A stretch of DNA of 64,000 bases from an uncultured delta proteobacterium. GTDB taxonomy: Bacteria > Desulfobacterota > RBG-13-43-22. The position numbers and the translations under genes are program-made. The first letter of the stretch is position 1; every line of letters starts with the position of its first letter. Under the pieces are notes generated by a model that worked only from the letters and a program-made list of their open reading frames with translations, was not told the origin of the DNA and ran no database searches. The stretch lies in contig CAWDKY010000027.1 in NCBI GenBank assembly GCA_963802945.1, positions 32,001 through 96,000 of the forward strand, read 5' to 3'. Of the stretch, positions 19,780 through 39,896 are shown in pieces.

Positions 19780-20163
19780 ATGGTCATAAGTCCTGAAAAA
19801 CAACAGGCCTTAAAAGAAGCCCTTTTTAAATTGGGCATCCGGGAAGAAGATGTGATCGAGCGGTTTATACGATCCCAAGGGGCGGGCGGACAAAAGGTCA
19901 ATAAAACTTCCAGCGCCGTTTATCTGAAGCATCTGCCTACTGGTCTCGAGGTCAAGATGCAAAAGGAGCGATCCCAGGCCTTAAACCGCTTCTTGGCCTG
20001 GCGTCTTTTGGCCGAGAAAGTGGAAGAACTTCAAGGCGGGAAATCCCTTCAGCAGCAGAAGGCCGAAAAGATACGCAAGCAAAAGAACCGCCGCTTGAGA
20101 AGGGCCAAATCAGAGGCCGGATCCCGGACAGCCGATCCGGAAGGCCGGATGTCCAAGACATAA
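19780..20163 (+). CDS. Small GGQ peptide-release-factor-like protein
   Basis: GAGGQKVNKTSSAV, RSQALNR, basic C-terminal tail. Confidence 0.88.
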   Translation: MVISPEKQQALKEALFKLGIREEDVIERFIRSQGAGGQKVNKTSSAVYLKHLPTGLEVKMQKERSQALNRFLAWRLLAEKVEELQGGKSLQQQKAEKIRKQKNRRLRRAKSEAGSRTADPEGRMSKT

Positions 20164-20485
20164 CGTCGGATAAAAAATAATTGAAGTTCCCCATTCCAGG
20201 GCACAGTCTCTTTACAGACTTCCAGGCAAGACAAAATCTTTATTGTTGAGGTTCGCTCGCTAATCTCATCAAAGGCGGGACTTTCACGCGGCTGGGGTAT
20301 TGAATGATCCTCTTGCCGTCCCACAAAATATTCACCATCTTGCATCTTGAATACTGCATCCAGCATCCCCACTTTTATTCTTGACACGGAAACATCTAAT
20401 TGATTATAGCTTTAAACTGACCCTTTAGGGGAAGTCCAATGAGAGAGCAATAATTAGTTACTAACAAATAGAAAGGAAAAGTTTT

Positions 20486-21793
20486 ATGAAATTGAGAAAT
20501 GCGGTTATTGTTGATGGTGTGCGATCCCCGTTTTCCTGGGGAGGCCGGGGGATGTATGAGGCCACCCGCTTGGACGAAGTGGCGGCCAAGGTCGTTCGCA
20601 CCTTGATGGAAAGAAATCCCAAAGTGAAACCGACCATGATCGAAGATTTCGGCATCGGCAATGCCGGAGGGACTTCGGATCTGGTCTTCCTGGGTGGCAT
20701 TTCCCGGTTGGCCGGATTGCCGGCGGAAACGACCAACTTTTCTTCCAACAGGCAGTGCGGCTCTTCCATGGAGACCATGCAGCGTATTGCCATGGCCATC
20801 ATGGTCGGCGCTACGGATTGCGGCATCTCCCTGGGGGTGGAACGGATGGGACGCACCCTGATGGGGGGTATGGCCGATGGACCGCCGCCTACCCGGGTGA
20901 CTGGATTGAACCCAAAAATTTTTGAGAAATCCAAACTCCAGCGGGATATGGCCGAAGATCACTCTAAATATTTCTCCGTGCCGATCCCGGATGAAATTCT
21001 GGATGCCCCTCCCTTACAACCCATGACTCAAACCGCCCAGAATGTGGTGGATATGTATAATATGACCCGGGAAGAGCTTGACGCCTACACGGTACGCAGC
21101 CATAAAAAACTGGCGGCAGCCTATGCCAAGGGGGTTTATAAAGATGAGGTGATCCCCATGGAGGTGGAGAAACCGGTTTTCAACGATAAAAAAGAATGGG
21201 TTCCTGAGGAAAAAGGCCCAATGGTCCTCTTTGATCAGGACGAGTGTCTCCGGCCGGGTTGTAATATGGAGGACCTGGGAAAGATGAATCCGGTGAAAGG
21301 GATTATCAGTTTCTGTAACAAACCGATTCACATTACCGCTGGCAATTCCTGCCCGACCAACAGCGGGGCTTCGGCCCTTTTGATCATGGCTGAAGATATG
21401 GCTATCAAACTGGGTATTACCCCCTTGGCCCGCATCGTGGGCATCGGTGTCGGAGGCGTGAAAGGCCAGCTCATGGGCATAGGCCCGATTCCGGCCACGC
21501 ATCGGGCCATGAAACATGCCGGGATCACGGCCGATCAGATCGACCGGGTGGAATTTAACGAAGCCTTTGCCTGCCAGGTTATCGTCTCGATCAAAGAGCT
21601 TGGCATTCCGGAAGAAAAGGTCAACGTGAACGGCGGGGCCCTGGGGATCGGTCACCCCTTAGGGGCAACCGGCGCGCGGCTGGTCATGACCGTGGCCAAG
21701 GAACTGCGCCGCAGCGGCAAACGCTATGGTCTGGCCACCCAGTGCATCGGGGCCGGCGAGGGCATCAGTACCATTTTAGAAGCTATGAATTAA
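20486..21793 (+). CDS. Thiolase family protein
   Basis: NRQCGSS, NEAF, GHPLGATG, CIGAG. Confidence 0.95.
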   Translation: MKLRNAVIVDGVRSPFSWGGRGMYEATRLDEVAAKVVRTLMERNPKVKPTMIEDFGIGNAGGTSDLVFLGGISRLAGLPAETTNFSSNRQCGSSMETMQRIAMAIMVGATDCGISLGVERMGRTLMGGMADGPPPTRVTGLNPKIFEKSKLQRDMAEDHSKYFSVPIPDEILDAPPLQPMTQTAQNVVDMYNMTREELDAYTVRSHKKLAAAYAKGVYKDEVIPMEVEKPVFNDKKEWVPEEKGPMVLFDQDECLRPGCNMEDLGKMNPVKGIISFCNKPIHITAGNSCPTNSGASALLIMAEDMAIKLGITPLARIVGIGVGGVKGQLMGIGPIPATHRAMKHAGITADQIDRVEFNEAFACQVIVSIKELGIPEEKVNVNGGALGIGHPLGATGARLVMTVAKELRRSGKRYGLATQCIGAGEGISTILEAMN

Positions 21794-21805
21794 AATCATT
21801 GCTAT

Positions 21806-21835
21806 CTGCAGGGAGGATGGCCATCCTCCCTGCAG
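21806..21835. terminator. Perfect 30-bp palindrome after the thiolase
   Basis: CTGCAGGGAGGATGGCCATCCTCCCTGCAG; no U-tract on +. Confidence 0.5.
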
Positions 21836-22175
21836 CCGAAAAAGAAGACCCGGGCAAACCTGATCTTCGGGATAACTTTTTACTTTAAATCTTTAAATAA
21901 AGCTTAATTCTCTATAATATTTTCAGTTACCTTCCTTTTGCTAATGGAGTAAAGTTTTTTTCGACCTTGCCTTCAAGTCAGAATACTAATATTATCACCA
22001 TCAATTTAGTCCAAATAACCCTGATTCCAAGGATAACGGTTTAATTCGAAAATAGGGTTTGAGGTTTAAAATTGGCCCAGTCCTATTTTTATGTACCGAC
22101 TTCCGACTGGAAGTCTCCTTTTTAGGTCGACACACGGCATCCAGCCGATCGGTCCGAGCGGCCCGACCTTATCAA

Positions 22176-22205
22176 GGTGCCCGCCCCTGGCGGGGCATGG
22201 TGGTT
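22176..22205. repeat. Short dispersed hairpin repeat (second copy 54033-54064)
   Basis: GGTGCCCGCCCCTGGCGGGGCATGGTGGTT versus GGTGCCCCGCCCCTGGCAGGAGTAGGACGGTT. Confidence 0.5.
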
Positions 22206-22228
22206 CATATACGAAAATAAGGAAATAC

Positions 22229-23464
22229 ATGTCCAGTTCTGTCGTCCCCATACAACCCGGTCGTCCGGAAGCAGAAAGGATTGAAGCCCTGGCTGATCAT
22301 TTGCAACGCCTGCACAAGGTCAATAGTTCCGACATCCGTGTCGTCAGAGCGCCGCTGCGTATTTGTCCGCTTGGCGCGCATATTGACCACCAGCTGGGTC
22401 AGGTAACCGGAACGACCATTGACCGGTCCATCTTGCTTGCCTTTGCGTCCAATGCCGACCGTACGGTCCATATCGTGAGCGAAAATTTTTCCCCGCCGGT
22501 CTTATTCCACCTGGATGATGTGCCGCAGGCCGCTCCCCGTGATTGGGGTAACTACATCAGAGGAGCAGTGCTCGGCCTGCAACAAAAAAATAATCTCAAG
22601 CGCGGATTAACAGCCGTGATCGGCAGCGATATGCCGATTGGAGGTCTAAGTTCTTCCGCCGCGGTAACGATCGCTTACTTGCTTGCTATGGAAGCGGTCA
22701 ACGATCTTGAATTGACGTCAAAGGAAAACATCAATCTGGTAAGGTTTACCGAAAATCAATATATCGGACTTAACAACGGTATCCTCGACCAGTCGGTCAT
22801 TCTTTTTAGTAAGCGCAATCACCTAATCTACATTGACTGCCAAAGCATTGAAGTCAAGCCGATGGTCGGGCCTTTGAAGGACGGCGATTTTGAGATTCTG
22901 GTTGTCTATTCCGGTCTGACAGGCGTTTTGGAAAGCACGGATTACAATAACCGGGTAGCCGAGTGTCGGGAAGCTGCGCGGAGGTTGCTGACCCTTTCAG
23001 GGCAAATTCCCGGGCCGGATACCTGCCTGCGCCAGGTTGATCCTGCCGTTTTCGCCGAAGAAGGCAGGCGCTTGCCGCCAAACCTTCAACGCCGCGCCGG
23101 GCACTATTTTGGGGAAATACAGCGTGTCAACGACGGCCTGGTGGCCTGGCAGCAGGGCGACCTGAACAGGTTGGGAGCCTTGATGACCGCCTCGGGTGAG
23201 AGCTCCATTAACAATTACGAGTGCGGCAGTCCGCAATTGATTACCTTGTATGAGATACTGCGGGAGACACCCGGCGTGTATGGAACCCGTTTCAGCGGCG
23301 CAGGTTTCCGGGGCTGCTGTCTGGCCCTGATTGACCCGAGCCTCCGCGAAACCGTGGCCGAGGCCGTTCACCGCCGCTACCCGGCCGAATATCCGGATCA
23401 GGCGGATGCTTATAACATTCACTTTTGCAGACCGGATGGGAGGGCTGAACTTTGCAAGGCGTAA
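22229..23464 (+). CDS. GHMP sugar kinase, galacturonokinase-like
   Basis: RICPLGAHIDHQ, GLSSSAA, GILDQ, NYECG, RFSGAGFRGCC. Confidence 0.88.
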   Translation: MSSSVVPIQPGRPEAERIEALADHLQRLHKVNSSDIRVVRAPLRICPLGAHIDHQLGQVTGTTIDRSILLAFASNADRTVHIVSENFSPPVLFHLDDVPQAAPRDWGNYIRGAVLGLQQKNNLKRGLTAVIGSDMPIGGLSSSAAVTIAYLLAMEAVNDLELTSKENINLVRFTENQYIGLNNGILDQSVILFSKRNHLIYIDCQSIEVKPMVGPLKDGDFEILVVYSGLTGVLESTDYNNRVAECREAARRLLTLSGQIPGPDTCLRQVDPAVFAEEGRRLPPNLQRRAGHYFGEIQRVNDGLVAWQQGDLNRLGALMTASGESSINNYECGSPQLITLYEILRETPGVYGTRFSGAGFRGCCLALIDPSLRETVAEAVHRRYPAEYPDQADAYNIHFCRPDGRAELCKA

Positions 23465-24402
23465 TTTTAGCCGCCGGGAAAGGGTCGCGGCTGAACCCGA
23501 TCACCTTAAAACGCAGCAAAGCGATGCTGCCGATTTTAGGCAAACCGATTATCGAGCGGGTGATGGAAACGCTCGTCAGGAACGGCATCCGCGAGTTTGT
23601 CATGGTCATCAGCAGTGAAGATGATGAAGTGGGACGTTATTTTCGGGAGCAATCAAAACTGGATGTCGACATCCAATTTGTCGTGCAGAGTGGGCGCAAG
23701 GGAATGGCTGATGCCTTAAGCCTGGCCGCCCCCCTTATCCAGGGAACATTTGTGCTGTCAGCCTGCGATAACCTGACCCCTGAAGAACATGTGGCCGGGC
23801 TCCTGGCGACTCACCGAACCATCGGCGCTAAGGCCACCCTCAGTTTAATGGAGATTGCCCCTTCGCTGGCCGGACGGACCGGTGTGGTAGAGTTGCGCAA
23901 CGGACAGATTACCAAAATTATCGAAAAACCGGCGGCCGGACAGGCGCCGTCCAACATAGCCAGTTTGCCGTTATATGTATTTTCACCGGTTCTGCTTGAT
24001 TATCTGCCCGAAATCAAGCCTTCTATACGTGGTGAGTATGAGTTGCAGGATGCCATCCAGATGCTCATCGAACGCGATGGAGGGGTCACCGGTGTTTTTA
24101 CCCCCAGCCGCCTTCAATTGACCAATGCTGACGATCTTCTGAAGATTAATCTTCATTACCTGACCACCAGGGGAGAAAAGCCACAGCTGGCCCCCCCGAG
24201 CGTTGGTCAGGACACCCAGATGATACCGCCCCTGCGCATAGAGGAGAACACGATCATTGGCCGGGGCTGCGTCATCGGCCCCCGTGTTTACATCGAGCGC
24301 AACTGTAGCATAGGCGTAGATGTACTCATTAAAGACGCCGTCATTTTGCGAAACACCGTCATTGAGGACGGCCGGCGGATTGTGGGAGAGGTCCTGGCTT
24401 AG
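23452..24402 (+). CDS. Sugar-1-phosphate nucleotidyltransferase with C-terminal beta-helix
   Basis: ILAAGKGSRL, KAMLPI, IIEKP, RGEYELQDA; overlaps the kinase stop. Confidence 0.92.
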   Translation: MQGVILAAGKGSRLNPITLKRSKAMLPILGKPIIERVMETLVRNGIREFVMVISSEDDEVGRYFREQSKLDVDIQFVVQSGRKGMADALSLAAPLIQGTFVLSACDNLTPEEHVAGLLATHRTIGAKATLSLMEIAPSLAGRTGVVELRNGQITKIIEKPAAGQAPSNIASLPLYVFSPVLLDYLPEIKPSIRGEYELQDAIQMLIERDGGVTGVFTPSRLQLTNADDLLKINLHYLTTRGEKPQLAPPSVGQDTQMIPPLRIEENTIIGRGCVIGPRVYIERNCSIGVDVLIKDAVILRNTVIEDGRRIVGEVLA

Positions 24403-24463
24403 TTGATCCCCTTGGATCCCGTTGGATCAGGTTCAACCCTGTTGGATCAGGTTGGATCCGGTT
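24403..24463. repeat. Cluster of short TTG(G)ATC repeats
   Basis: ttgatccccttggatcccgttggatcagg...gttggatcaggttggatccgg. Confidence 0.6.
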
Positions 24464-24794
24464 GCTGGTTCAGTATTTCCCAAGAAAAATGAGCCGAGCC
24501 AGGCATGACAAGGTCAAATGCAGGGCCTACGGTGTGATTGTATCTAAGGAGATGAATAAGAGGTTCGGAACCCTGTTGAAAACTCATGAACGTAACATCG
24601 AGGGAACGGTTATGGTATCCTACCCCGGTGGTTGCGCCTTTTGCCAGTTCAAGGTTTCCTGTATGGACTGAAATCCCATGGCCAAGGCGCAAAAGGGGTC
24701 ATGATATGCTATCTGCTTTTGGAAAATGACAAGAGCCTCGGAGGGCCAGCCTAAAAAAGTATGGTGTTTTCCGATTTCGCCCCATAAAGATGAC

Positions 24795-24823
24795 TTGACA
24801 AGAAAATATTTATTTGTTATCCT
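24795..24823 (+). promoter_or_regulatory. Sigma70 promoter for the leader and PheRS
   Basis: TTGACA-17 nt-TATCCT with TG extension. Confidence 0.75.
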
Positions 24824-24832
24824 ACAACCACG

Positions 24833-24898
24833 ATGATTTCATTACTTCCTCAAAATTACTTTTTTACCCTCTTCTTTTTCGCGCCGGCGGCGCGATAA
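24833..24898 (+). CDS. Phe-rich leader peptide MISLLPQNYFFTLFFFAPAAR (pheM-like)
   Basis: 5 Phe codons within 7 positions, directly upstream of a PheRS gene; followed by alternative GC stems. Confidence 0.85.
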   Translation: MISLLPQNYFFTLFFFAPAAR

Positions 24899-25024
24899 TA
24901 CCCCTCTAGCGCCAGTTGGCGCCCAAACAAAATCCAAAATAAGCAACCCCCTAAGACCTCAGAAACATCAGTGGATATTTAGGCCTTAGTCAAAATTTTT
25001 TCATTAGGCATCAAGGAGACAGCT

Positions 25025-26170
25025 ATGAAATATACTCGAAAAAACATGCAGGAGATATTGGATCATTTGGCGTCGCGAACGGACACAGACGCCAATAGAA
25101 TCAAACGGCTCATGCAAATGCCGGATCTTTCCGGACGTCCCAATACCCCTGTTTACCACATTGTTGAAGCCGTCAAGAAGGCTGAGTCTTTAGAAAACCA
25201 TGACCTGGTTGAATTTCCGGAAATCGTTTCAGTCGAAGAGAACTTCGATCTGCTGGGAACACCCCCGGAACATCCCAGCCGAAGACCAAGTGATACTTTC
25301 TATCTAGATGATCATAATCTATTGCGAACCCAGACCACAACCATGTGGTCTTTTTATCTGAAAGATCCTGCCAACCTGAGGAGACTGGAAAAAGACGGGA
25401 GATTGTTGTCCCTTTCCTATGGGAAGGTATACCGCAACGATGAGATCGACCGATATCATTACCCGGTCTGGCACAATCTGGATGGGTTGTGCATCAGTAA
25501 GACCTCTGAAAAGGAGTTCAACCTGGTTGACTTGGTCAGCGTTCTGGTTGATGTCACCAAGAGTATTTACGGACGGGAAATCAAATGGGGAATGGAATAT
25601 AGCTCCTTTCCTTTTACCGACCCAAGTATTGAAATACAGATCGAATGGCAAAATGAACGAGTGGCGGTCCTGGGCGCAGGTATTGTCCATAAAAAAGTGC
25701 TGTCGCTTTTAAATATCGATCCTGACCATTATAACGGCTGGGCCTTTGGATTGGGTCTGGATCGTCTGGCCATGATCAGAATGAATATTCCGGATATCCG
25801 TATTCTCTGGTCCGAAGATGACAGGATAACCAAACAATTCAATAGCATTGACAGCATTTTCAGGGAAGTAAGCCAGTATCCCTCGACGGACAGAGACATC
25901 TCCATGGTGGTGTCGAAAGAAGTTCCGGTGAAGGCGATCTACGGCCTTATTAGAGACTGCGGCCATTATCAGAACGAGGATATCATCGAGGAAGTAAAAC
26001 TCGTTGATACGTATGCGGATGATGAAAAATTCGGAAATGGAAATATAAGCCATACCTTTAGAATTCGATACCGTTCCTTGGCCAGGACCTTAGAAAATTC
26101 GGAAATAAATAATGTTCAGGAGCTTCTCAGGAATAAAGTTAAAACCGAGTTTAATGTGCTTCTTCGATAG
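25025..26170 (+). CDS. Single-chain phenylalanyl-tRNA synthetase (catalytic domain fused to FDX-ACB)
   Basis: NFDLL..HPSR..SDTFY, GKVYRNDEID, FPFTDPS, GWAFGLGLDRLAM, IPDIR, then YPSTDRDIS...FRIRYRSLARTL..EIN. Confidence 0.9.
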   Translation: MKYTRKNMQEILDHLASRTDTDANRIKRLMQMPDLSGRPNTPVYHIVEAVKKAESLENHDLVEFPEIVSVEENFDLLGTPPEHPSRRPSDTFYLDDHNLLRTQTTTMWSFYLKDPANLRRLEKDGRLLSLSYGKVYRNDEIDRYHYPVWHNLDGLCISKTSEKEFNLVDLVSVLVDVTKSIYGREIKWGMEYSSFPFTDPSIEIQIEWQNERVAVLGAGIVHKKVLSLLNIDPDHYNGWAFGLGLDRLAMIRMNIPDIRILWSEDDRITKQFNSIDSIFREVSQYPSTDRDISMVVSKEVPVKAIYGLIRDCGHYQNEDIIEEVKLVDTYADDEKFGNGNISHTFRIRYRSLARTLENSEINNVQELLRNKVKTEFNVLLR

Positions 26171-26251
26171 CGGAGTAAATGAGAGACCTGATTTTGATGG
26201 AATTCTAAAAATAGGGGAAGTGTATCTATTCCCCACGATTCAGAAAATAAC

Positions 26252-26280
26252 TTGACATGCTGACCATTTTCGTATAAAAT
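26252..26280 (+). promoter_or_regulatory. Sigma70 promoter
   Basis: TTGACA-17 nt-TAAAAT; ATG at 26288 follows after 7 nt. Confidence 0.65.
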
Positions 26281-26287
26281 GGCCGCC

Positions 26288-27496
26288 ATGATAACCAGAA
26301 ATCTGCAACAAGAAATTAAAGAATTAATGGCTCAAAAGCGATCTGTTTTCTTGTTTGGACCGAGGCAGACCGGCAAGACCACTCTCTTGACCGAAATCAG
26401 CTCCCTTTATCAAAAGGTCCTGGATTATTCTTTCTTAAATGTTTCCTTAAAATTAAAGGCCGAACAACAGCCCCAGTTTATCCGGCAGGAAGTTGAAGCC
26501 GCCAAGCCGGATCTGGTGATCATCGATGAAATACAGAAGGTCCCGGATATTCTTGATGAGATTCAATGGATGATCGATAAATCCAAGTTCGTTTTTGCCG
26601 TCACCGGATCATCCGCCAGAAAATTAAAAAGAAAAGGGGTCAATTTACTGGCCGGACGGGCCGTGACCTTTCATCTGGACCCGTTTGATATTTCCGAGAG
26701 AAAGCGAGCCATTCCGGATTTAAAAGGTAAGGATCATCTGGAAAAAATATTAACCTATGGGGATTTACCTGAAATCACCCTCCTGGTGACTCAGAAAAAG
26801 ATTAAGCTGGTGGAAAACCTGTTGCGTTCTTATGTAGAAACTTTCCTGGAAGAAGAAATCCGGATGGAAACCTTGGTCAGAAAAATAGGTCTTTTTGGGA
26901 ACTTCCTGCGAATGGCGGCTGAAATGTCCGGGAGGATACTCAGTTTCAGGGAACTTTCGCAGGACATCGGGGCCAGTCATCAGACCATTTCCTCTTTTTA
27001 CAGCATCCTAAACGACTGCTTGGTGGTCGAACCCATTCCCCCTCTGCTGTCGTCTTCCACCCGGCGAAGGCTATCGAAGGCCACTAAATTTATTTTTTTT
27101 GATTTGGGAGTTCGAAATGCCTCAGCGGGTCTACTGACGGATAAGGGTATTACGTCCGAAGAGTGGGGAAACCGCTTTGAACAGTGGGTTGGCCTTTCCC
27201 TGATTCGATATTTCCGGAGCCGAAATCTGAAAGGTGCAGTCTATTACTGGCGGGATCATAACGGTCCGGAAATCGATTGGATTGTAGAAACCCATAACCG
27301 CTGGATCCCGGTGGAAGTGAAGTGGACCGACCGCCTCCTGCCGAAACACTGGAAATATTTAAGTCAGTTTATCCGGGAAAATCCCGGAAAGGCTACTGTT
27401 GGCTACATTATATTTAACGGGGAACGGGCCAGACAAATAGACCGGAATATCATCGCCCTTCCCTGGTTTGAGTTGAATCAAATTTTCAAAGTCTAA
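26288..27496 (+). CDS. AAA_14 / DUF4143 ATPase
   Basis: GPRQTGKT, IDEIQ, TGSSA, FDLGVRN, FEQWV, EIDW..PVEVK. Confidence 0.92.
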   Translation: MITRNLQQEIKELMAQKRSVFLFGPRQTGKTTLLTEISSLYQKVLDYSFLNVSLKLKAEQQPQFIRQEVEAAKPDLVIIDEIQKVPDILDEIQWMIDKSKFVFAVTGSSARKLKRKGVNLLAGRAVTFHLDPFDISERKRAIPDLKGKDHLEKILTYGDLPEITLLVTQKKIKLVENLLRSYVETFLEEEIRMETLVRKIGLFGNFLRMAAEMSGRILSFRELSQDIGASHQTISSFYSILNDCLVVEPIPPLLSSSTRRRLSKATKFIFFDLGVRNASAGLLTDKGITSEEWGNRFEQWVGLSLIRYFRSRNLKGAVYYWRDHNGPEIDWIVETHNRWIPVEVKWTDRLLPKHWKYLSQFIRENPGKATVGYIIFNGERARQIDRNIIALPWFELNQIFKV

Positions 27497-27574
27497 TCCC
27501 CACACCCGGCCATCCGACCCCTTTTCTCTAAACTACTATATGTTGGCCTTTCCGCCCTTTGGTTCTCCCTCCTT

Positions 27575-27712
27575 ACTCCGAACTCTGAGCTCTGAACTGT
27601 CTTTATTCTGATTCTCTCAACTCCGAACTATCCTTTCCTGCCTCATCCCTCACCCCTCGTCTTTCTTGTTTTTTCTTTCCTCCGAACTCCGAACCCTGAA
27701 CGCTGAACGTCT
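27575..27712. repeat. Pyrimidine-rich tract with degenerate heptamer repeats
   Basis: ctccgaactctgagctctgaact; ctccgaactccgaaccctgaacgctgaacg. Confidence 0.55.
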
Positions 27713-27728
27713 TCGACTTTTGCTCAAC

Positions 27729-27847
27729 TGCACAGAAATTTGTGCAGCGGTGACCAAATAATTGTGCAAATGGACCTCCGGCACCATCACAGGGAAAACC
27801 TAATTAGAAGAAAATATTCATTAATTTATCCTGGCATAGATCCTGCT
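27729..27847 (+). promoter_or_regulatory. Sigma54 promoter with tandem enhancer sites
   Basis: TGCACAGAAATTTGTGCA (27729), TGACCAAATAATTGTGCA (27751), TGGCATAGATCCTGCT (27832). Confidence 0.7.
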
Positions 27848-28170
27848 ATATAATTTATTATTTTATATATTTTCAGATTAGGTGAGCAGGATCGATAACC
27901 TTAAATTTTGCAAAATCGGGTACTGCCAGGAATTCAAATCAATTTTATTATTGACATCTTAGCTTCCTTTTGGTTGAATTCTGTCACCTTTCGTATCAAA
28001 GTCCTTTCCATTGTAATTTGTGAAGTTAACATTTCCTTGCTTTTGAAGTAAGTATTCCGGCCAAATAGCCGGTTGAAGTGATAGCTGAACAGATAGTCCT
28101 TTTTTCAAGCAAATAAGTCTTAAATTTAAGTGGGGAAGTATCCCCTTATTTCAGATGGAGTTCTTAAATC

Positions 28171-28740
28171 ATGCAGGAAAATGTGATTAAAATTCCAAGG
28201 GAAAGGATTGAACAAATCATTTTATTGATTCGTGGCCAAAAGATTATCATAGATGCGGATTTGGCGACCCTTTATGATGTTGCAACAAAAGTGCTAAATC
28301 AAGCGGTTAAAAGAAATGCAAAGCGATTTCCGTCTGACTTTATGTTCCAATTGACTCCAAAAGAAAAAAACGAACTGGTCACAATTTGTGACCGGTTCCA
28401 AAAACTAAAACATTCTTCGGTCTTGCCGCGAGCATTCACAGAACAAGGTGTTGCAATGCTTTCTACTGTTCTTAACAGCGACCGGGCCATTGCGGTTAAC
28501 ATTGAGATTATGAGGGCTTTTGTCCGACTAAGGCAGATGCTATTAACCCATGCTGAATTGGCCAGAAAGCTTGAGGTTCTGGAACGAAAGTACGATGCCC
28601 ATTTTAAAATGGTATTTGAGGCCATCCGACAACTCATGATTCCGCCGAAGACCCCGAAACGCAAAATCGGCTTTGATCTGAAGGAGGAACAGGCTAGATA
28701 CGGGAAAAGGAAAGACAACAAGGTGGCGCCAAGAAATTAG
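28171..28740 (+). CDS. ORF6N domain DNA-binding protein
   Basis: [49 protein letters not shown]. Confidence 0.93.
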
Positions 28741-28886
28741 TATGGATGTCCCCGGATTTCTTTTGTGAAATTTTTATTTCAGGAGGTTAAAAACTTGAGG
28801 TTCCAAGTTGTCTCCTCAAGTTCATTCAATTGGGTCGGAACCTGCTTTGACGGGGTTGAGGATTTAGGTTAGGGATGGGAGTTAGG

Positions 28887-28924
28887 AAGTAGAATGCAAA
28901 GAAAATAGGCCTGACCCCCGGCCT
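28887..28924 (+). repeat. Junction repeat upstream of TIR-STAND (direct copy at 32691-32723)
   Basis: AAGTAGAATGCAAAGAAAATAGGCCTGACCCCCGGCCT versus AAGCAGAATGAAAAGAAAATA-----GACCCCCGGCCT. Confidence 0.75.
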
Positions 28925-28972
28925 GCTTATGGACTTATTGTTACGATAAAATAGGCCCTGGAGGATGACGCT

Positions 28973-31900
28973 ATGGAACAGAATATGAAAATAAAGCTTT
29001 TTATTTGCTATTCTCACCAAGATGAGGCTCCTTTTGTTGAGCAATTTAAAAAACATATTTCTCCACTAAAAGACAATGGTTTAGTTGAAGAGTGGTATGA
29101 TCGAAAAATCTTACCTGGTGAAGATTATCAAAATCAGATTGATAATAATTCAGAAGATGCAGATATTATTTGTTTATTTATTTCTGTAAATTTCCTTTTT
29201 TCAGTTAATTGTAAGAAAGAAAAAAAGAAAGCGTTAGAATTAAGAAAAAGGAAAGGAATTTCTGTTATTCCAATCATTTTGTCTCCATGTGGATGGTCAG
29301 ATGATAGGGATATTTCCAAATTGTTGGCCTTGCCCACAGACGGAAAACCGGTCATGAGTTTTCAAAATATGGATGAAGCATGGTATGATGTTTACAATGG
29401 ATTAAAAAAAATAATTAAGAAAGATACAAAGATTAAGCAAATAAAAATAAAAGAAGAATTTGAAAGTTTCTTGCAGGATACAGAAATGCTAACAAAAGCA
29501 CATCCTCAAAAAGAACTGGTTTTTTTAGGTGACATATTTATATATCCTGAGTTAGATAAATTTGATTATTTAAGAGAATACAAAGAAAAAATAAGCTCAG
29601 AAGAATTATTAAAAAACCTTCTTGATTATCCAAAGATTGTTATAGCTGGTGAGACTTTGTCGGGTAAAACGACATTGTGTAAAATGATATTTAAAAAGTT
29701 ACGGAAAATAAATTTTGTCCCTGTTTATGTTTTCGATAATAAAAATCAGTTTAAAGGAAAAATAAAAAATAAAATATTACGCTCATTCCAGGAACAATAT
29801 GAGGGGGTAGAAATAAAGGAAATTGATAGGGAGCGAATAGTTCCGATAATAGATGATTTTCATTTTGCTAAGGATAAAGAAAAGCATATACGAGATTTAT
29901 CCAACTATCTTTACTGTATAATAATTGTTGATGATATTTTTTGTTTGAATATTAAGGATGAAAAACTTATTGGACAATTTAATCCATTTAAAATAAGAGA
30001 ACTAAAACCGTCATTACGGTATGAATTAATTAAAAAATGGGAATTTTTAACAGATAAAAAAACTATTGATAATAATTTCTATGGGGAAATAGACAAAGCC
30101 GTCGAATTAATAGAGTCCACTTTGGGTAAAATCATTGGTAAGGGCGTTATGCCTTCATACCCTTTTTATATTTTATCTGCCATAGTTTCCTATGAGACAT
30201 TTAACACGCCACTTGATCAAGAAATTACATCCCAAGGTTACTGCTATCAGGCTCTTATATATTTTTATTTAAGGAAAGGGGGCGTAAGAAATGATGAGAT
30301 TGATATATACATAAATTTCTTTACAGAAATATCTTTTTACTTCTTTAGAGAAAAGAAAAATGAATTATTGCCCGACGACTTTACCTTATTTATGACGGAG
30401 TATTTAGAGAAATATAACCTTCCAATAAAACAGGAAATACTACTTCAATATTTAAGTCCAATAATTTTGGTAGATAGCTTTAATAATTATTCATTTCGAT
30501 ATAACTACCTTTATTATTTTTTCGTTGCTAAATATCTGGCCGAGCATATTGAGGATCGTGAAATAAAGAACATAATTGAAAAGATAATGCAGAATCTTCA
30601 CATAGATGAAAACGCCTATATTGCGATATTCATAACACATCACTCTAAAAATATCCAGATTTTAGATGAAATTGGACTAAATGCTTTAATTTTTTTCGAT
30701 AAATATAAACCTGCAACTTTGACAAAAGACGAGGTTAAGTTTTTTGATGAACGAGCAGATATTATTATCAAGGCGGCTTTACCTCCTGGCGATACAACAC
30801 CCGAAAAAGAAAGAATGGAAAGATTAAGAATTCAAGATGAGATGGAGCAATCACAAGGAAATGTTGAGAAAAAAGATGATAAAAATAAAAATGATTCTTT
30901 TGGAATAGAATTAAGGGGGGCAATCAGGACAGTTGAAGTTATGGGATATATTATTAAAAACCGAGCCGGGTCATTAGAAAAGACGAAACTTGAAGATATA
31001 TTTAAAGAAGCAATGAATGTTCATTTAAGAATTTTGTCCTCTTTCTTTAAAATTATAGAAAGTGAAGAAAACCAAAAAGGTATAGTTGATTTCATATTAG
31101 AAAGGTTAGATAAAATTATTAAGAAAAAAAAGGGGGAATTATAGTGAACGTCTTAAATAAGTGGACATAAAGATTTTATCTTTTGAGGTTTCCATCGTTG
31201 CGACCTTTTAAAGACAGAGACCTCCAGGGTTTCAAGAGTCTCAAAAAAGGCATTCGTTGTTTCCTCATAGCGCATGGTTCGCCAAAGAGTTTCTTGATAA
31301 TTCAGCTCCGGATGGTAGGGCGGAAGATAGTGAAGATGCACTCGACGGTGTTGACTCCGAAAGTGCTCCACCATCTCTCCCCTGTGCCATGGGGCTCGAT
31401 CTATCCAAAGATCGATACTCTTATCTTTGAAACGTATCATGATGCTTTTGAGAAGCCGCATAAAGCCCTCGGTATTGCCCTTCCTCCATTTCATCATGCC
31501 ATGCAGCCCATCAACGGGAGCGACCCATCCAAAGAGATTAAGCCGCTTCTGATGTTGGCTCCGGGTGGAGACGTACGGTTGCGTTCCTTTCTTTACCCAG
31601 ACACGACCCAGCCTCGGATGAAGACTAAACCCGCTTTCGTCCTCAAACAGAATGATTCTTCTTCCTTCGCTCTTTTCGGCCTGGCGGAGTTTTTTTTAAT
31701 TCCCTCTGAAATGCCTCTACCCCTTCCTGGGAAGCCTGAACAAACCGGTACATCGGCTGCCTCAGGGAATACCCCAACTGACGTATCCACCGTTGGGCAT
31801 GGCGGACATGGATGGTTATGCGATGAAAACGCTTCAAATATTCCGTCAAGACCACCCCATCCCACCGGACCCGGGCAATGCCATAGTCTTTCGGAGACTT

Positions 31901-32659
31901 GGACAAGACCACGTCCAGTTCCCTCTTCAAGCGATCATCCAAGTGGGAAGGCCGGCCAGGGCGAAATCGATCGCGGACAGCCCCAATTCCCTCCTCGTTG
32001 CTCTTATGAATCCATTTCACCACCGTCCACCGGGTCAACCCGAACAGTTCGGCAACAGCCGTGGATTTCCACCCGGCCAAGAGCAGAAGATAACCGGCGA
32101 TCCGCATGCCGATCCAAGCTCCCGGAATTTCATCGGCCATTCGTAACAAGGTCTCTCGCGTCATCTTTGGGTGATCGAGGCTTAGAGCTTTCATGGCTTT
32201 CCTCCCAATGTGATTTTATTGGGAGTCATTATAGCATGGAATGCACATAATGTCTACTTATTTATGGCGTTAACTATAAGTAGAGAAAAACTTAAGGAAA
32301 TCTCAAGAATTATCTTCTGGAATCTGAACTTTTTTGTTGTATATGGTTTTATCTATAAAATTATTCACTCATTAGGTTCTGATAAATTAACAGAAATTGT
32401 TAAAAAAGTATGTAATGAAATTAATACTCCGGCGTCTTTCATAGTGAAACATGGTATTTTAATGTGGTACAATAAAAATTTACAACTTGATGAACTTTTA
32501 GCAAAAATTGAGGAAAAAGACCTTTCTATGATAACAGAAAGAGTTATAAATCGTTTTGTTGTTAATCATTGTGTTTTACATCCAATTAATTATAAAGACC
32601 GACAAAGAATTGAAAACAAATTAGGGATTCGTACAACAAAACTTTTAAATAGAAGTTAA
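28973..32659 (+). pseudogene. TIR domain + STAND-type NTPase protein interrupted by IS630 (849 aa when reconstructed)
   Basis: FICYSHQD..WYDRKILPG..CKKE TIR; Walker A GETLSGKT; IIDDFH; removing the IS and one TA restores ...GELSREKLK in frame; very AT-rich. Confidence 0.88.
31142..32276 (-). mobile_element. IS630-family insertion sequence, copy 1 (1135 bp)
   Basis: Terminal IRs TAGTTAACGCCATAAATAAGTAGACA / TAGTGAACGTCTTAAATAAGTGGACA; TA duplication; HTH ORF plus DDE ORF (FEDES, IDRAPWH, LPPYHPELNYQE). Confidence 0.95.
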
Positions 32660-32754
32660 TAAGTCAGAACAAAATTGGGGTCATTATTGAAAGCAGAATG
32701 AAAAGAAAATAGACCCCCGGCCTAATTAAAAAAAATGATTGTTTAAGGAACCAT

Positions 32755-34221
32755 ATGACAAGCTCCCGTCCTCATATACTTCTCGTTTCGCCCAAGCACC
32801 CTCCAGAAAATTTGATGTGGGATTGTGCATCTATTCGCAAATTTTATGGCGACTCCCAAGGTCGATCTATCAGTTCCCCTTGTTATCCTCTTGCTCTCCC
32901 TCTTATTGCAGCATTAATCAAGAGGGCACAGCCAGATATATCTTTAGACGTAGTAGATGAAGACGTAACACCCATCCCACGAGAAAAGAAATGGGATTTA
33001 GTTTGTATTTCAACCAATACATTGCAGGTCAAGAGAGCTTTTGAGTTATGCAGAGACTTTTCCAACACTGCAAAGGTCATCCTTGGAGGTTCGCATTTTT
33101 CGTTATACACAAAAATCACACTTGCGGAAGCTCAAGGTTATGCTAACAGTGTTGTCTTTGGCAAGACAGACAACATGTGGACCGGGATTCTCGATGATTT
33201 TTTAAACGGCAAACTCCAAACCGCTTACATGTCAGACCCAAATGACGCAGACGATTTTCGTAACCATGTCATTCCCGCCTTCGAGTATTTGAAAATGGAT
33301 TCATACCTTCATCGATTAATCGAAACGAGCAGAGGGTGTATAAGACGGTGTGATTTTTGCTGTGTGTCTGATAAATTACGATTTAAACCAATTGGAAATG
33401 TCATTGAAGAGATCAAGATCCTAAGGAATATTGAGCGGCAACATAATCTCCAGTTTGCATCCATCTTTTTCGCAGATAACTTACTTAATCCCACGGGAAT
33501 ACACTCTGAAAGATCAAGCCAATTGATGGAAGCCCTCATTAAGTATAAAGAGAGCCACTATTTAGGAGACAATCTGAAGTGGAGTGGCCAGGCTGACTTC
33601 TTGATTAAGGACGATGAACCTCTGATACGTCTTATGAGTAAAGCAGGAGCCCGCAGGTTGCTTATAGGCTTTGAGTCTTTTCATAATCATTTCGATAAAG
33701 GGTTGGGCCTAACTAATCCTCGTGAGCGTAAGCGTTTTTTTGCAGAGCTTATAGCAATGCTTCGTAAGCATGGAATAGAAGTAATAGCATCCTTTATTAT
33801 AGGCCATGACAACGACCCTGAAACAGTGTTTATCGAATTAAGTGAATTCATAGAAGACACTAACCTAACTTCAGTTCAAGTATTAGTATTGACGCCGTTT
33901 CCTGGAACAAAAGTCTTCAACGAGCTTTATTCGCAGGGTAGACTAATCTCTTCTGACAATGGTCACATCGATTGGACCAAATTTAATTCACTCACCTTTG
34001 TTTTCAAAACCAAAAAACTAGAAGCGAAATACAGTGAATACATAAAATTTTTGAGGAAAATTTACAACTATGAAAGAATTCTGAAGAGAGTGGATGCTAA
34101 GATGAACGAGTTTCCACTTCACGTTCGCGATGAAGTCAAGAAAAATGATTTGCTTTTTGGAAAACACTGCTCGCAGATTGCAATGACTATCGGAGGGGAA
34201 CAATATGTCGATGATTTTTGA
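32755..34221 (+). CDS. B12-binding radical SAM protein
   Basis: VILGGSH cobalamin-domain motif, TSRGCIRRCDFC, FADN, IGFES, TPFPGT. Confidence 0.92.
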   Translation: MTSSRPHILLVSPKHPPENLMWDCASIRKFYGDSQGRSISSPCYPLALPLIAALIKRAQPDISLDVVDEDVTPIPREKKWDLVCISTNTLQVKRAFELCRDFSNTAKVILGGSHFSLYTKITLAEAQGYANSVVFGKTDNMWTGILDDFLNGKLQTAYMSDPNDADDFRNHVIPAFEYLKMDSYLHRLIETSRGCIRRCDFCCVSDKLRFKPIGNVIEEIKILRNIERQHNLQFASIFFADNLLNPTGIHSERSSQLMEALIKYKESHYLGDNLKWSGQADFLIKDDEPLIRLMSKAGARRLLIGFESFHNHFDKGLGLTNPRERKRFFAELIAMLRKHGIEVIASFIIGHDNDPETVFIELSEFIEDTNLTSVQVLVLTPFPGTKVFNELYSQGRLISSDNGHIDWTKFNSLTFVFKTKKLEAKYSEYIKFLRKIYNYERILKRVDAKMNEFPLHVRDEVKKNDLLFGKHCSQIAMTIGGEQYVDDF

Positions 34222-35680
34222 CCCAAAAAAAATAGATAAAACCCAATTTAATTTATCCGTTAACATCATCAGAGATCATGAAAGTTCTCATCATGTTTGT
34301 TTTAACAAACTCTTCCCTGCCTGCCGGTACAAAAAAGACCAATTACAGGATTATAAGAGATTTCACGTGAGAGTCTACATACCGAAGAAAGCCCTCATGA
34401 ATATAAAAAAAGAAATCGAACGTGCGATAATAATGGTAAATGGCCTCGATGAAACCAAATATTTCACACTGTACGACCAACTTGGTCTCAAGTTGGCAGA
34501 ACATGGCATTGCCTCTGTTCTGATTCCTCTACCTGGCCACCTGAATAGGCATGCAGAATACCGAAATAAGGTCCCCGTATACGAAAAAAGACCAACAGCA
34601 GATTTGTTAGCGAACCCAGCAATTACAAGGCGTTTTTATTTCCAATTCATGGAAGAGTTGGATATTCTCTTAGATCACCTTACAGGGCAAGACTGTTGTG
34701 AAAGAAATGACAATTGTTTTTTCTTTAGAAGCCTTTTTGGTCCAGAAACGCGGGTTTCTATTTTGGGATACTCCATTGGCGCTTTGGCCGCTTTGGCCCA
34801 CTTCATCAAAAGAAAGGACAAATATAATTCATGCTTTGCACTAAACGGTGGCATCCAGATTAGCGATTTACGTTTCCCAGATAAATTCATAGAAAAAAGC
34901 GTATGGAAGGAGTTTACTCTCAAGCTGACAAGCTTTTGGGCGACACAGCACAAACCAACAGATTCACCAGATGAGATCATCGATGATACCCTTTTCTCTC
35001 AATTCTTTCTTGGATCTTATACGGGTCCCCTTAAGGAAATTCTTAAAGCATTATCACGTCGGATCTTGTTCGTTTTTGGAGGGAGCGACCAACTCATCCC
35101 TTTTCAGAGTCTGCAGAAGATTGAACCGGAGGAGCATGGTTTATCTATTTTAAAAATACCAGGCCTAGGCCACTTCCTCCCAAAGGAAAGAGAATGGAGT
35201 AATTGGATTGATACTCTTGTCAACCTAATTGCGAATTTTGAAGAAAATGCTGCCCATGAAATCCTTGGGTTTAAGGAACTCATCGAGACTCTTATAAAGT
35301 TGGATAGGAAACACGAATTTATTTCCAGGAACCCCGAATTTCCTTTCAATGGTGTTTTCTTTGGAACAAATATGGCCCTTGAAAAAATAGAGGACGCCAA
35401 TGTTTACCGCCTAGTACAAAAGCTGATTCAGTGTTCATCTGCATATATTTCTTCCGAGGACCTGTATTCTGAACTCAGCAGAGAAAAATCTAAGTACCTT
35501 CTCGGAAACTTGCTTGTCGAGAGCGGACATGTTCGGGAGGATCATGTTGCGGAATGCCTATTAGTCCAATCTAAATCGGGAACGGCGCTCGGTGAATTAC
35601 TTGTTTCTAAGAAGTATCTAGACGACGGAAGGCTAAACAAAGCTTTGCGGAAACAGGAGGCCTTCTACAAAGAGGGATGA
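34205..35680 (+). CDS. Alpha/beta hydrolase with C-terminal MshEN-like repeats
   Basis: GYSIG, GGSD, LGH triad; LGNLLVESGHV..LLVQ and LGELLVSKKYL..ALRKQ at 35498-35656. Confidence 0.8.
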   Translation: MSMIFDPKKIDKTQFNLSVNIIRDHESSHHVCFNKLFPACRYKKDQLQDYKRFHVRVYIPKKALMNIKKEIERAIIMVNGLDETKYFTLYDQLGLKLAEHGIASVLIPLPGHLNRHAEYRNKVPVYEKRPTADLLANPAITRRFYFQFMEELDILLDHLTGQDCCERNDNCFFFRSLFGPETRVSILGYSIGALAALAHFIKRKDKYNSCFALNGGIQISDLRFPDKFIEKSVWKEFTLKLTSFWATQHKPTDSPDEIIDDTLFSQFFLGSYTGPLKEILKALSRRILFVFGGSDQLIPFQSLQKIEPEEHGLSILKIPGLGHFLPKEREWSNWIDTLVNLIANFEENAAHEILGFKELIETLIKLDRKHEFISRNPEFPFNGVFFGTNMALEKIEDANVYRLVQKLIQCSSAYISSEDLYSELSREKSKYLLGNLLVESGHVREDHVAECLLVQSKSGTALGELLVSKKYLDDGRLNKALRKQEAFYKEG

Positions 35681-35760
35681 ACTGGTCAGCTTTTCGAAGA
35701 GGGAAATAGTGAAGAAATGGGGGACGACCTTAAATAATTGATTCCTGAGAAATAAGTCCC

Positions 35761-35841
35761 GGGGTCGAGGGTCAGGTCTTTTATTTTGGCATAATGAATT
35801 AAAGCAGAACACCGGTAATGGATAGGGATTGGGGGCTTACC
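35761..35841 (+). repeat. Left half of a ~140-bp repeat element (full copy 39726-39864)
   Basis: gggtcgagggtcaggtcttttattttgg..attaaagcagaaca.cggtaatggatagggattgggg.cttacc is shared. Confidence 0.85.
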
Positions 35842-36169
35842 TGATTTTAGGGTCAGGTCTTTTATCTTGGTGTTATTGTCAAAGGAGTCATGTCTACGTT
35901 TGACTTTTGAAACTATTTTAGATTAATTATTGATACTTCTCTTTTTCACATCAAGGATTGCGGGTTAAGATTAAAGAAATCTATAAGGGGCAAACCTTGC
36001 GCCCCGATTTACCACTTGATAAGCATTACAAATTACTCAATACGATGAGCAAATTTACTCAAAAACGACAGCAAACCTTAAGCCTTATTTTCGCCCTCCA
36101 GCTTCTATGGATTTGTAGTCAAATCTTGATCCTTGGAGGTATGGGGCTGGCCGACGTCGGTGATTCTGG

Positions 36170-36203
36170 TTGACAAAATTATAATGGTCAGTATAATGAC
36201 TAT
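36170..36203 (+). promoter_or_regulatory. TA operon promoter/operator
   Basis: TTGACA-16 nt-TATAAT; inverted repeat ATGGTCA/TGACTAT around the -10. Confidence 0.65.
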
Positions 36204-36500
36204 ATGGTAAAAAATAATGGGGGGTTAGATATGGAGATCATTCGGGAGTATATCCCAGTCACCAAGGCCAAAAGCGATCTGCTGAATTTGATTCGAAAGC
36301 TCGAAAATAGCGAAGATGCCGTTGCCATTACGAAAAACGGAACTCCAGAGGCCGTTCTGATCAGCATGAGAAAATTTAAAGGACTCCTGGAGACCATTGA
36401 TATCCTTTCCGATGAGCAGGCCATGAAAAGCATTAGAAAATCCATCCGGGAGGCCAATCGAGGAAAATGGGTTGAGTTCGATAAGGTTTTCGGGCCATGA
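36204..36500 (+). CDS. Phd/YefM antitoxin
   Basis: VTKAK..L..L, ITKNGTPEAVLIS, LLETIDILS; start may be 36231. Confidence 0.92.
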   Translation: MVKNNGGLDMEIIREYIPVTKAKSDLLNLIRKLENSEDAVAITKNGTPEAVLISMRKFKGLLETIDILSDEQAMKSIRKSIREANRGKWVEFDKVFGP

Positions 36501-36787
36501 AGGAATATCATGTTCGTTTCACTCCTGAAGCAGTTCAATGTATCTCCCGGCTGCATCCCGATCACAAGAAGATCATACGAGACGCCTTAGACCAACTGCG
36601 TCGTGAACCCTTTACCGGTGATGACTTGCAGGAGGAACTCGCCGAATTCAAATCCTTTAAGCCCAGGAGATTTCGGATCATCTATACCATTGACCAAAAC
36701 AAACGGCTTATCCAAGTCTATTATGTCGGCCTTCGTAAGGACGTTTATGACCAATTCCGGCTTCTGCTGGACAAACTAAAATCATAG
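36497..36787 (+). CDS. RelE/ParE toxin
   Basis: VRFTPEA, FRIIYTI, VGLRKDVY; ATGA overlap with the antitoxin. Confidence 0.9.
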   Translation: MKEYHVRFTPEAVQCISRLHPDHKKIIRDALDQLRREPFTGDDLQEELAEFKSFKPRRFRIIYTIDQNKRLIQVYYVGLRKDVYDQFRLLLDKLKS

Positions 36788-36863
36788 CCGCACCTTATTT
36801 CAGAAAAAGGGAACTTTCCCGGATTAAAATAAAAAGTCTTGAATTGGGGTCGGACCGGACGAA

Positions 36864-36942
36864 GAGATTGGAGTCTTACCAGACGAAGAAACTGGATTCA
36901 TAGGGAATTGTATGAAAAACTGGGGTAAAAAAGGTCTTAAAC
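36864..36942 (+). repeat. Right half of the ~140-bp repeat element
   Basis: gattggagtcttaccagacgaagaaactggattcatagg...cttaaac matches 39787-39864. Confidence 0.8.
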
Positions 36943-37055
36943 CGACCTTCTTACCCCCCAAAATAAAGCTTTTGATGCCTGTATTTCCTGAGTTTATTCT
37001 GGCTTTATTTTCCGGGGCTGAACACAAGTCCGGAGAAACCGAGCCGGAAATCGGT

Positions 37056-39518: not shown

Positions 39519-39725
39519 AGTTTTCCGTTCCTGTTTCGAATGAATTGCAAGCAGATCTCTTATCCGGAATAAGCTCTCTGGAAGGTAATCATCCCAAGGC
39601 TATTGGTTTGATAAAGCCGCTTTTTCGTGGGAAGAATATAAAATAAAGTCAAGAGAGGATCAAGGGGAAAAATTGAAGGGAAAACCAGGTGACCAAGGGG
39701 ATGGTAGGATTAAGATTGGGGTCGT

Positions 39726-39864
39726 GGGTCGAGGGTCAGGTCTTTTATTTTGGTATAATTAAAGCAGAACATCGGTAATGGATAGGGATTGGGGTCTTAC
39801 CAGACGAAAAAACTGGATTCATAGGAAATGGTTTGATAAATGCAGGGCAAAAATGGGCTTAAAC
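39726..39864 (+). repeat. Full ~140-bp GGGTCAGGTCT-type repeat element
   Basis: Concatenates the halves seen at 35761 and 36864. Confidence 0.85.
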
Positions 39865-39896
39865 TTATTAACTTATTGGCCTGAAGACGGCCTGCG

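Follow-up and report, generated by a model that had tools for sequence, protein, structure and literature searches.

A Patescibacteria-type single-chain phenylalanyl-tRNA synthetase with a phenylalanine-rich leader, held beside canonical PheST in a Thermodesulfobacteriota genome

The DNA analysed here (the window) is a stretch of 64,000 nucleotides (nt), positions 32001-96000 of contig CAWDKY010000027.1 (C27) of assembly GCA_963802945.1, which represents an uncultured bacterium of the Thermodesulfobacteriota and is a metagenome-assembled genome (MAG; G000) of 72 contigs and 4.37 Mb with 6.7% contamination. Its forward strand encodes a phenylalanyl-tRNA synthetase (PheRS) of 381 amino acids (aa) in which the catalytic core of PheS and a ferredoxin-fold anticodon-binding domain (FDX-ACB), usually the C-terminal end of PheT, are joined in a single chain. 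This is an acquired auxiliary PheRS: canonical pheS and pheT lie on another contig of the same genome, and the single-chain gene is therefore an extra copy. It is preceded by a leader containing a phenylalanine-rich open reading frame (ORF), which likely acts as a Phe sensor. The features concerned, in window coordinates, are the following.

24784-26218, forward strand: promoter-leader-gene module, common to a sister-species genome (G005; 93.4% nt identity) and a metagenome contig (L043; 88.6% nt identity), with different flanks
24795-24823, forward strand: sigma-70-like promoter, TTGACA-17-(TG)TATCCT, matching the consensus at 10/12 positions
24833-24898, forward strand: leader ORF of 21 codons, peptide MISLLPQNYFFTLFFFAPAAR, stop codon TAA at 24896-24898
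24881-24922, forward strand: 13-bp GC-rich hairpin (arms 24881-24893 and 24909-24922) that covers the last five leader codons and the stop codon
24923-24950, forward strand: C/A-rich spacer poor in G (from 24924, 3 of 42 nt are G), conserved at 23/25 and 24/25 positions
24951-24989, forward strand: second hairpin, with one compensatory pair (C24957-G24983; T-A in G005, T-G in L043)
25013-25019, forward strand: Shine-Dalgarno (SD) sequence AAGGAGA, 5 nt before the PheRS ATG
25025-26170, forward strand: single-chain PheRS gene, 381 aa (from ORF, Pfam, fold, and nonsynonymous to synonymous rate ratio, dN/dS)
25148-25840, forward strand: class II PheS catalytic core, residues 42-272, with motifs 1, 2 and 3 and FPFTDPS intact
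25469-25477, forward strand: codons of W149-H150-N151, replacing the motif-2 FHQ (from alignment)
25871-26167, forward strand: FDX-ACB anticodon-binding domain, residues 283-381, with D291, D328, Y330 and the C-terminal R381 conserved

Pfam assigns PF01409 (tRNA-synt_2d) to residues 42-272 of the protein (E 4e-50) and PF03147 (FDX-ACB), directly after the core, to residues 283-381 (E 3.5e-20). An AlphaFold model built from 60 relatives (pLDDT 94.2, pTM 0.90) has its top Foldseek matches in closed-state human mitochondrial PheRS (5mgw and 3cmq, TM 0.79-0.81 over about 390-415 columns), which is also the closest solved relative by sequence (E 1.8e-43), with a near-identical motif 3. The direct fusion of the two domains, the FARS2-like architecture and the lack of an N-terminal coiled coil, all proposed by the first-pass annotation from the sequence alone, are thereby confirmed; in alignment, the canonical PheS of the same genome is about 90 residues longer at the N-terminus. 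The features of alpha-type class II PheS proteins (motifs 1-3, FPFTxPS) are present with the sole exception of motif 2, where FHQ is replaced by WHN, and GAG is retained along with FPFTDPS. Among 147 aligned bacterial single-chain proteins, H83, R86, H145, H150, D153, F195, P196, T198, S201, G217 and R247 are invariant (147/147) and R137 and G219 nearly so (146/147 each), while on the anticodon side D291 and Y/F330 are found in 147/147, R381 in 146/147 and D328 in 141/147. Because of these intact motifs and conserved anticodon-side residues, together with purifying selection and the status of its relatives as the sole PheRS of their genomes (see below), the product is probably an active spare PheRS.

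The genome search shows that the single-chain protein does not replace the housekeeping enzyme. Canonical pheS (322 bits, cut-off 237) adjoins pheT (837 bits, cut-off 403) on contig C17, in the gene order infC-rpmI-rplT-pheS-pheT, with a gap of only 55 nt and no leader ORF between rplT and pheS. The sister-species genome likewise carries both PheRS forms. A single tRNA-Phe(GAA) is found among the 50 tRNAs of the genome, and no tRNA gene lies in the window. As had been noted, the single-chain gene has no pheT neighbour, being flanked upstream by GHMP-kinase/galactokinase-like and NTP-transferase genes and downstream by a gene for an AAA_14/DUF4143 ATPase.

Three NCBIfam models score the protein below their cut-offs: canonical pheS (TIGR00468, 153.5 bits against 237.45), pheS_mito (TIGR00469, 211.2 against 258.35) and SrmL ('PheS-related mystery ligase', NF051887, 235.4 against 300), the last being nonetheless its top NCBIfam score. 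Its relatives in a collection of 5.8 billion proteins have about 380 residues and the same two domains (the best 120 matches all carry PF01409 and PF03147); a small group shares 68-94% identity, and the named ones beyond it are Patescibacteria (the Candidate Phyla Radiation, CPR), at about 50%. A pattern scan of species-representative genomes returned 28 loci, one of them in a Thermodesulfobacteriota MAG (94% identity); the remaining taxon-labelled loci are all from Patescibacteria, a few being titled just 'bacterium', and the Atlas clusters consulted for the taxonomy of the related proteins P0003-P0025 are CPR-labelled only. The single-chain form occurs in 25 of 401 evenly sampled Patescibacteria genomes, and in all five Patescibacteria genomes examined for the canonical genes it is the sole PheRS-like gene, pheS and pheT falling below cut-off. 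Among 401 Thermodesulfobacteriota genomes it is present in three, all from the genus of the window (G000, G005 and G002, the last with a partial copy of 42% identity at a contig edge).

A careful IQ-TREE phylogeny (56 rows, LG+C20 with posterior mean site frequencies), whose topology is the same as that of a 141-row FastTree, splits the single-chain proteins from canonical PheS (support 100/100) and divides them into a mitochondrial-type branch (100/97) and a bacterial branch (99/97). Within the latter, the query subclade (99/97) has labelled Patescibacteria both as its sister (100/99) and outside it, and the protein belongs by monophyly, length and both domains to the Patescibacteria-type single-chain clade. 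The scarcity of the gene in its own phylum (3/401) and its nesting among Patescibacteria support horizontal acquisition from a Patescibacteria-type source, in agreement with the CPR resemblance mentioned in the first-pass annotation and with the transfer suggested there. No plasmid or phage record covering at least 80% of the query was found.

The exception in motif 2 is confined to one clade. A regular-expression scan of 247 sequences matched 216, the other 31, uninspected, falling outside the strict pattern; FHQ is found in 206 of the matches, which span canonical, mitochondrial-type and Patescibacteria-type proteins, and WHN in ten. These ten rows are eight distinct sequences, i.e., the window protein, P0001 (G005), P0002 (L043) and P0003-P0007, and they include the window protein and its closest relatives. 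A search of the whole collection with residues 128-172 gave 13 proteins, with WHN only in P0001-P0007 and in no further protein. Across the 147-protein alignment, only three of the 381 residues are fixed in this clade at sites at least 90% conserved elsewhere, namely F149W and Q151N (F and Q, respectively, in 137/137 of the other single-chain PheRS) and E307G (E in 129/137). In Mycobacterium tuberculosis PheRS (FRS), which has the same F-H-Q-x-E register, adenine lies between His209 and Phe213, and Gln215 makes contact with the ribose and the carboxyl of Phe and, by a water-mediated contact, with the amino group, according to PMC8136816. Since W149 and N151 are equivalent to Phe213 and Gln215, both changed residues should touch the aminoacyl-adenylate, the kind of active-site substitution at ligand-contact positions that marks resistance aminoacyl-tRNA synthetases (aaRS); the remaining catalytic and anticodon-side residues are retained despite WHN. 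On this comparison of sequences, the change from FHQ to WHN appears to be a newly recognised, clade-specific one.

The gene recurs together with its upstream region as a module with sharp ends, which begins some 10 nt before the -35 element and ends about 50 nt beyond the stop codon (blastn and alignments). The G005-type allele, with G005-type flanks and identical breakpoints, is also present on contigs from three peat runs, each of a different study, which add no new leader variants; a fourth run (freshwater sediment) spanned only 26138-26400. Pairwise dN/dS among the three alleles (window, G005 and L043) is 0.145-0.209, which indicates that the gene is maintained by selection. Its position at the edge of an accessory region, proposed earlier, is corroborated by comparison with the genus: the left flank (22800-24402) is present in 0/13 other genomes, and the conserved core starts again only at about 40876. 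In G005, conserved CoA-transferase genes, 90.8% nt identical to those of the window, follow 1.2 kb after the module, whereas the window has some 14.6 kb of DNA of lower GC content between the two, encoding the AAA_14/DUF4143 ATPase, a protein with ORF6N, a TIR-STAND NTPase, a B12-radical-SAM enzyme and unknowns. No terminal repeats or target duplications were found around the module.

In the upstream part of the module, the promoter-like site fits the earlier claim that the gene has a promoter of its own insofar as segment 24784-24829 is conserved (44/46 identical in G005, 41/46 in L043); the match by itself does not exceed chance, such sites numbering 3 in the region against 3.6 in shuffles. 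The predicted Phe-rich leader is confirmed: the ORF has Phe codons at 24860-24865 and 24872-24880, i.e., 5 Phe within 7 codons, and is kept in 3/3 modules, as befits the short ORF of a leader-peptide attenuator. Across all frames of the 4.37-Mb genome, 21 ATG-initiated ORFs of at most 40 codons contain 5 or more Phe within 7 codons, and MISLLPQNYFFTLFFFAPAAR is the only one preceding a Phe-related gene (downstream products judged by eye); by our own arithmetic, about 6e-4 such ORFs are expected per 250-nt upstream region. In G005 and L043 the leader ATG lies 3 nt (one codon) further upstream, 6 nt after the -10 element; in the window this upstream start has become ACG and the next in-frame codon ATG, so that the frame is kept. 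Finally, each arm of the 13-bp hairpin is itself palindromic, giving four interchangeable GC segments of the kind known from classical attenuators, in which the three near-identical sequences show no covariation. The Phe-rich ORF with its GC hairpins is the best-conserved part upstream of the gene: block 24864-24925, holding the Phe tract and hairpins, is identical at 61/62 positions (98%) in G005 and 57/62 (92%) in L043, compared with a synonymous divergence of the gene of 0.18 and 0.37, respectively, and in the leader codons that precede the run of Phe, identity drops to 24/34 and 27/34 positions. No other copy of the leader was found in the genome.

Taken together, we lean, with moderate confidence, towards a CPR-type one-chain PheRS that was acquired, kept beside canonical PheST and induced through its leader when charged tRNA-Phe runs short. 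A one-chain PheRS of the type that is the sole PheRS of some Patescibacteria would have entered a Thermodesulfobacteriota lineage and remained under purifying selection alongside the canonical (alpha-beta)2 enzyme. With an adenylate site altered by the clade-specific F149W and Q151N and no editing domain of its own, the spare enzyme would charge the single tRNA-Phe(GAA) of the cell. It would be expressed from its own promoter via a leader of about 190 nt, in which the ORF with five Phe codons precedes the four GC segments. A scarcity of charged tRNA-Phe, arising either from Phe limitation or from inhibition of or damage to the housekeeping enzyme, would stall the ribosome at the Phe codons, refold the leader and yield more spare enzyme. 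Stalling could act on expression by translational unmasking, by a termination that needs no U-tract, or by Rho at the C-rich spacer. An extra PheRS would be of little use when Phe is absent, and a backup for a compromised housekeeping enzyme is therefore the most sensible role, one for which the WHN pocket could matter. As no editing domain is present in the spare enzyme, editing in trans might fall to the canonical one; trans-editing by PheRS is mentioned in PMC4787780. We infer the stalling-dependent switch, aminoacylation in the host and a kinetic or resistance effect of WHN from sequence; Phe sensing by the leader is likely, and a resistance role possible.

Several observations weigh against this account of an acquired, leader-induced spare enzyme. 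At the level of the protein, a substrate-contacting Gln is changed, so full PheRS activity is not to be taken for granted, and five of the WHN proteins (P0003-P0007) carry no host label. The GC content of the gene (0.448) is close to that of the genome (0.474) and lends no support to a recent transfer; as composition is indistinctive, the case for transfer rests on distribution and phylogeny. As for the leader, no intrinsic terminator was called between 24823 and 25025, the hairpins being followed by CCAAACAAAA, and in 20000-40000 no Rfam family, T-box included, was matched up to an E of 1. No SD sequence is visible before the leader ORF; the position of its ATG in G005 and L043, 6 nt past the -10 element, suggests a leaderless start. 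The Phe tract could also pair with the SD sequence of the gene, and in constrained folds the probability that the SD is unpaired goes from 0.04 to 0.54-0.59 in L043, from 0.50 to 0.83 in G005 and from 0.51 to 0.55-0.71 in the window, but the duplex energy is reached by 185/200, 153/200 and 47/200 shuffles; an anti-SD role is not claimed, the pairing being no better than in shuffles. With just three closely related leaders at hand, little can be built on the conservation of the ORF or on the one compensatory pair.

Auxiliary or resistance synthetases have precedents, and so do leaders rich in cognate codons. The window protein resembles the single-chain PheRS of Patescibacteria in length (about 380 aa), in the two domains and in sequence (47-52% identity, clade support 99/97). 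There, however, the enzyme is the sole PheRS and has FHQ, and 66/69 loci are without a comparable Phe-rich ORF (the other 3/69 having a weaker F-rich one), whereas the window enzyme is a second copy in another phylum, with WHN and a Phe leader. Mitochondrial PheRS (FARS2, PDB 3CMQ/3TUP, TIGR00469) shares architecture, fold (TM 0.8) and motifs 1-3, GWAFGLGL[DE]RLAMI being nearly identical between the two, but forms a separate clade (100/97); the window protein scores 211 bits, below the 258 of the mitochondrial model, is bacterial, has an insertion between motifs 1 and 2 and is without the long organellar insert. Short ORFs with runs of Phe codons are found in the E. coli pheST attenuator (leader peptide pheM) and the pheA leader, and the window resembles these in having such an ORF before a PheRS gene, followed by putatively alternative hairpins; it differs in lacking a U-tract terminator and in serving an acquired gene, the organism's own pheST being leaderless, unlike that of E. 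coli. The auxiliary tryptophanyl-tRNA synthetase (TrpRS) of Streptomyces coelicolor is reportedly indolmycin-resistant and controlled by ribosome-mediated attenuation. Like the window PheRS, it is an additional aaRS whose active site is changed and whose gene has a leader rich in cognate codons, but it is a class I enzyme for another amino acid, and its resistance and attenuation are experimental, while those considered here are predictions from sequence.

Among the alternatives, the one that survives best, though we regard it as doubtful, is a bypass tolerant of an inhibitor or analogue, in which the WHN pocket would withstand a natural inhibitor of PheRS, whether it mimics Phe-adenylate or competes with Phe, or else an analogue of Phe, and the leader would switch the gene on when such an agent disables the canonical enzyme, as with the indolmycin-resistant TrpRS of Streptomyces. 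It draws on F149W and Q151N being the sole clade-fixed changes at 137/137-conserved sites, on FHQ being kept in the canonical and mitochondrial types too (206/216 motif matches), and on a Phe-sensing leader reporting exactly that PheRS is inhibited; contacts of the equivalent Phe213 and Gln215 with adenine, Phe carboxyl and ribose, as given in PMC8136816, point the same way. Yet no inhibitor is known or implied at the locus, no inhibitor biosynthetic cluster was recognised in the window, a literature search for PheRS self-resistance found nothing relevant, and the missing editing domain argues against protection from analogues of the m-Tyr type. In its boldest form, which we consider unlikely, the WHN clade would be an unrecognised class of inducible bypass PheRS, captured from CPR bacteria, re-tuned by F149W/Q151N and equipped with a newly evolved Phe-codon sensor. 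If so, the pocket would escape some natural agent that blocks the canonical enzyme (inhibitor, analogue, or microbial or phage-conflict toxin), and the spare enzyme would be made solely upon collapse of Phe-tRNA-Phe; together with SrmL, which also seems to have Phe-codon leaders, it would point to a general and undescribed provision for charging tRNA-Phe by spare enzymes, encoded in the accessory genomes of bacteria.

Rather improbable is a plain redundant paralogue, expressed constitutively, in which the Phe-rich ORF and hairpins have no sensing role and could be a T-rich tract with operator or stability elements. The leader has neither a terminator nor significant anti-SD pairing, its ORF has no SD sequence, and proteins could bind at the conserved GC palindromes; according to PMC4787780, duplication of aaRS genes is moreover very common. 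Against it stand the rarity of the Phe-rich ORF (about 6e-4 expected per upstream region), the start-codon replacement that preserves its frame, the Phe codons directly abutting the hairpin, and a Phe-rich ORF before a phage gene of an unrelated branch, SrmL. A Phe leader before two different single-chain branches makes chance less likely.

SrmL itself bears on a further alternative, a neofunctionalised, SrmL-like ligase for another amino acid or for non-translational acyl transfer, which we judge very improbable. SrmL is the top NCBIfam match by score (235 bits), and the two share a PheS core with an ACB-like domain and occurrence as an extra copy in accessory DNA; the change of the substrate-contacting Gln and the accessory setting adjoining defence-like genes also fit. 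However, a true member scores 423 bits, and ordinary Patescibacteria enzymes fall, like the window protein, below the cut-off of 300 (208-270 bits); true SrmL above it was found in 0/401 Patescibacteria genomes. Three true SrmL (from a jumbo phage, an Azotobacter plasmid and a Glutamicibacter plasmid) form a separate branch of length 3.0 and have EPHQ in motif 2, the phage protein also having HYYT, read by eye, where PheRS has FPFT. Identity with SrmL is thus rejected on score, branch and motifs (EPHQ/HYYT vs WHN/FPFT), and FPFTDPS, GAG and all anticodon-side residues are kept in a protein with just 3 clade-specific changes in 381 residues. The phage gene lies at 1417-2496 of the uncultured phage LR745206.1 (L119; 634,780 bp), with the F-rich short ORF MNTNTTFNFFFSHKMV 133 nt upstream. 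The plasmid genes of Azotobacter chroococcum (L120) and Glutamicibacter nicotianae (L121) are annotated as hypothetical proteins; in the 400 nt upstream of either there is no F-rich ORF, defined as one with 3 or more F in 7 codons, and that of Glutamicibacter stands just behind a Cmx/CmrA efflux gene.

An artefact, from a contaminating CPR contig or a chimeric assembly, is barely credible in spite of the 72-contig, 6.7%-contaminated MAG and of the G002 copy that may well be a contaminant, as the gene lies inside a 212-kb contig and the module recurs in G005, near the CoA-transferase genes, in L043 and in the peat-run contigs, which also disposes of the misassembly that the first-pass annotation had allowed for. 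The G002 copy (L007, G002:C4:1-2198) is a partial single-chain PheRS of the FHQ type, with a GC content of 0.425, beside phosphoribosyltransferase and zinc-ribbon genes, and may be a Patescibacteria contaminant or a separate acquisition.

Reviews still treat one-chain PheRS as confined to organelles, as does a 2025 paper (PMC12525003), our literature search found no description of a bacterial monomeric PheRS, and a search for 'SrmL' gave no biological match. The searchable literature contains no account of a second PheRS of CPR type that sits in another phylum, has WHN in place of FHQ as a unique change and is preceded by a Phe leader. Such a one-chain enzyme would have passed from CPR bacteria to a free-living anaerobe with no need of it and been kept there under selection, with a cognate-codon leader coupled to a double change at adenylate-touching residues invariant in all PheRS types examined. 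The module thus informs on gene flow from CPR bacteria to other bacteria and offers, in 1.4 kb, a testable system for the regulation of auxiliary synthetases outside model phyla. As PheRS is a drug target, the effect of FHQ to WHN on sensitivity to inhibitors and analogues is also of interest.

Further observations concern the surroundings of the module. Right after the NTP-transferase stop codon, at 24402-24463, are five to six tandem 10-nt units (about GTTGGATCNG). Directly downstream of the module, the AAA_14/DUF4143 ATPase (26279-27496) and ORF6N (28171-28740) genes precede a gene of very low GC content (0.29) for a 723-aa TIR and STAND-NTPase protein (28973-31144); these genes (26279-31144) resemble a defence island and are absent from G005. 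Four forward-strand ORFs follow at 31183-35680, among them those for 355-aa and 149-aa proteins without a Pfam match; the B12-binding radical SAM enzyme, with DUF4070, is encoded at 32755-34221 (forward strand), overlapped by a gene for a 491-aa protein without a Pfam match. On the reverse strand, 37056-39518 encodes an 820-aa protein in which two stretches of family III CoA-transferase are fused into a double form, adjoining enoyl-CoA hydratase and CoA-transferase A/B genes. In G005 (L015), the PheRS module is directly preceded by an ORF with a HicA toxin domain (338-691, E 2.4e-10), which an 88-aa ORF overlaps. Elsewhere in the genome of the window, at C17:472861 on the reverse strand, the Phe-rich short ORF MFFALFFFLSLSFPCYILILFKSN stands 47 nt upstream of the gene for a 389-aa protein that resembles, by eye, an AMP-dependent acyl-CoA ligase.

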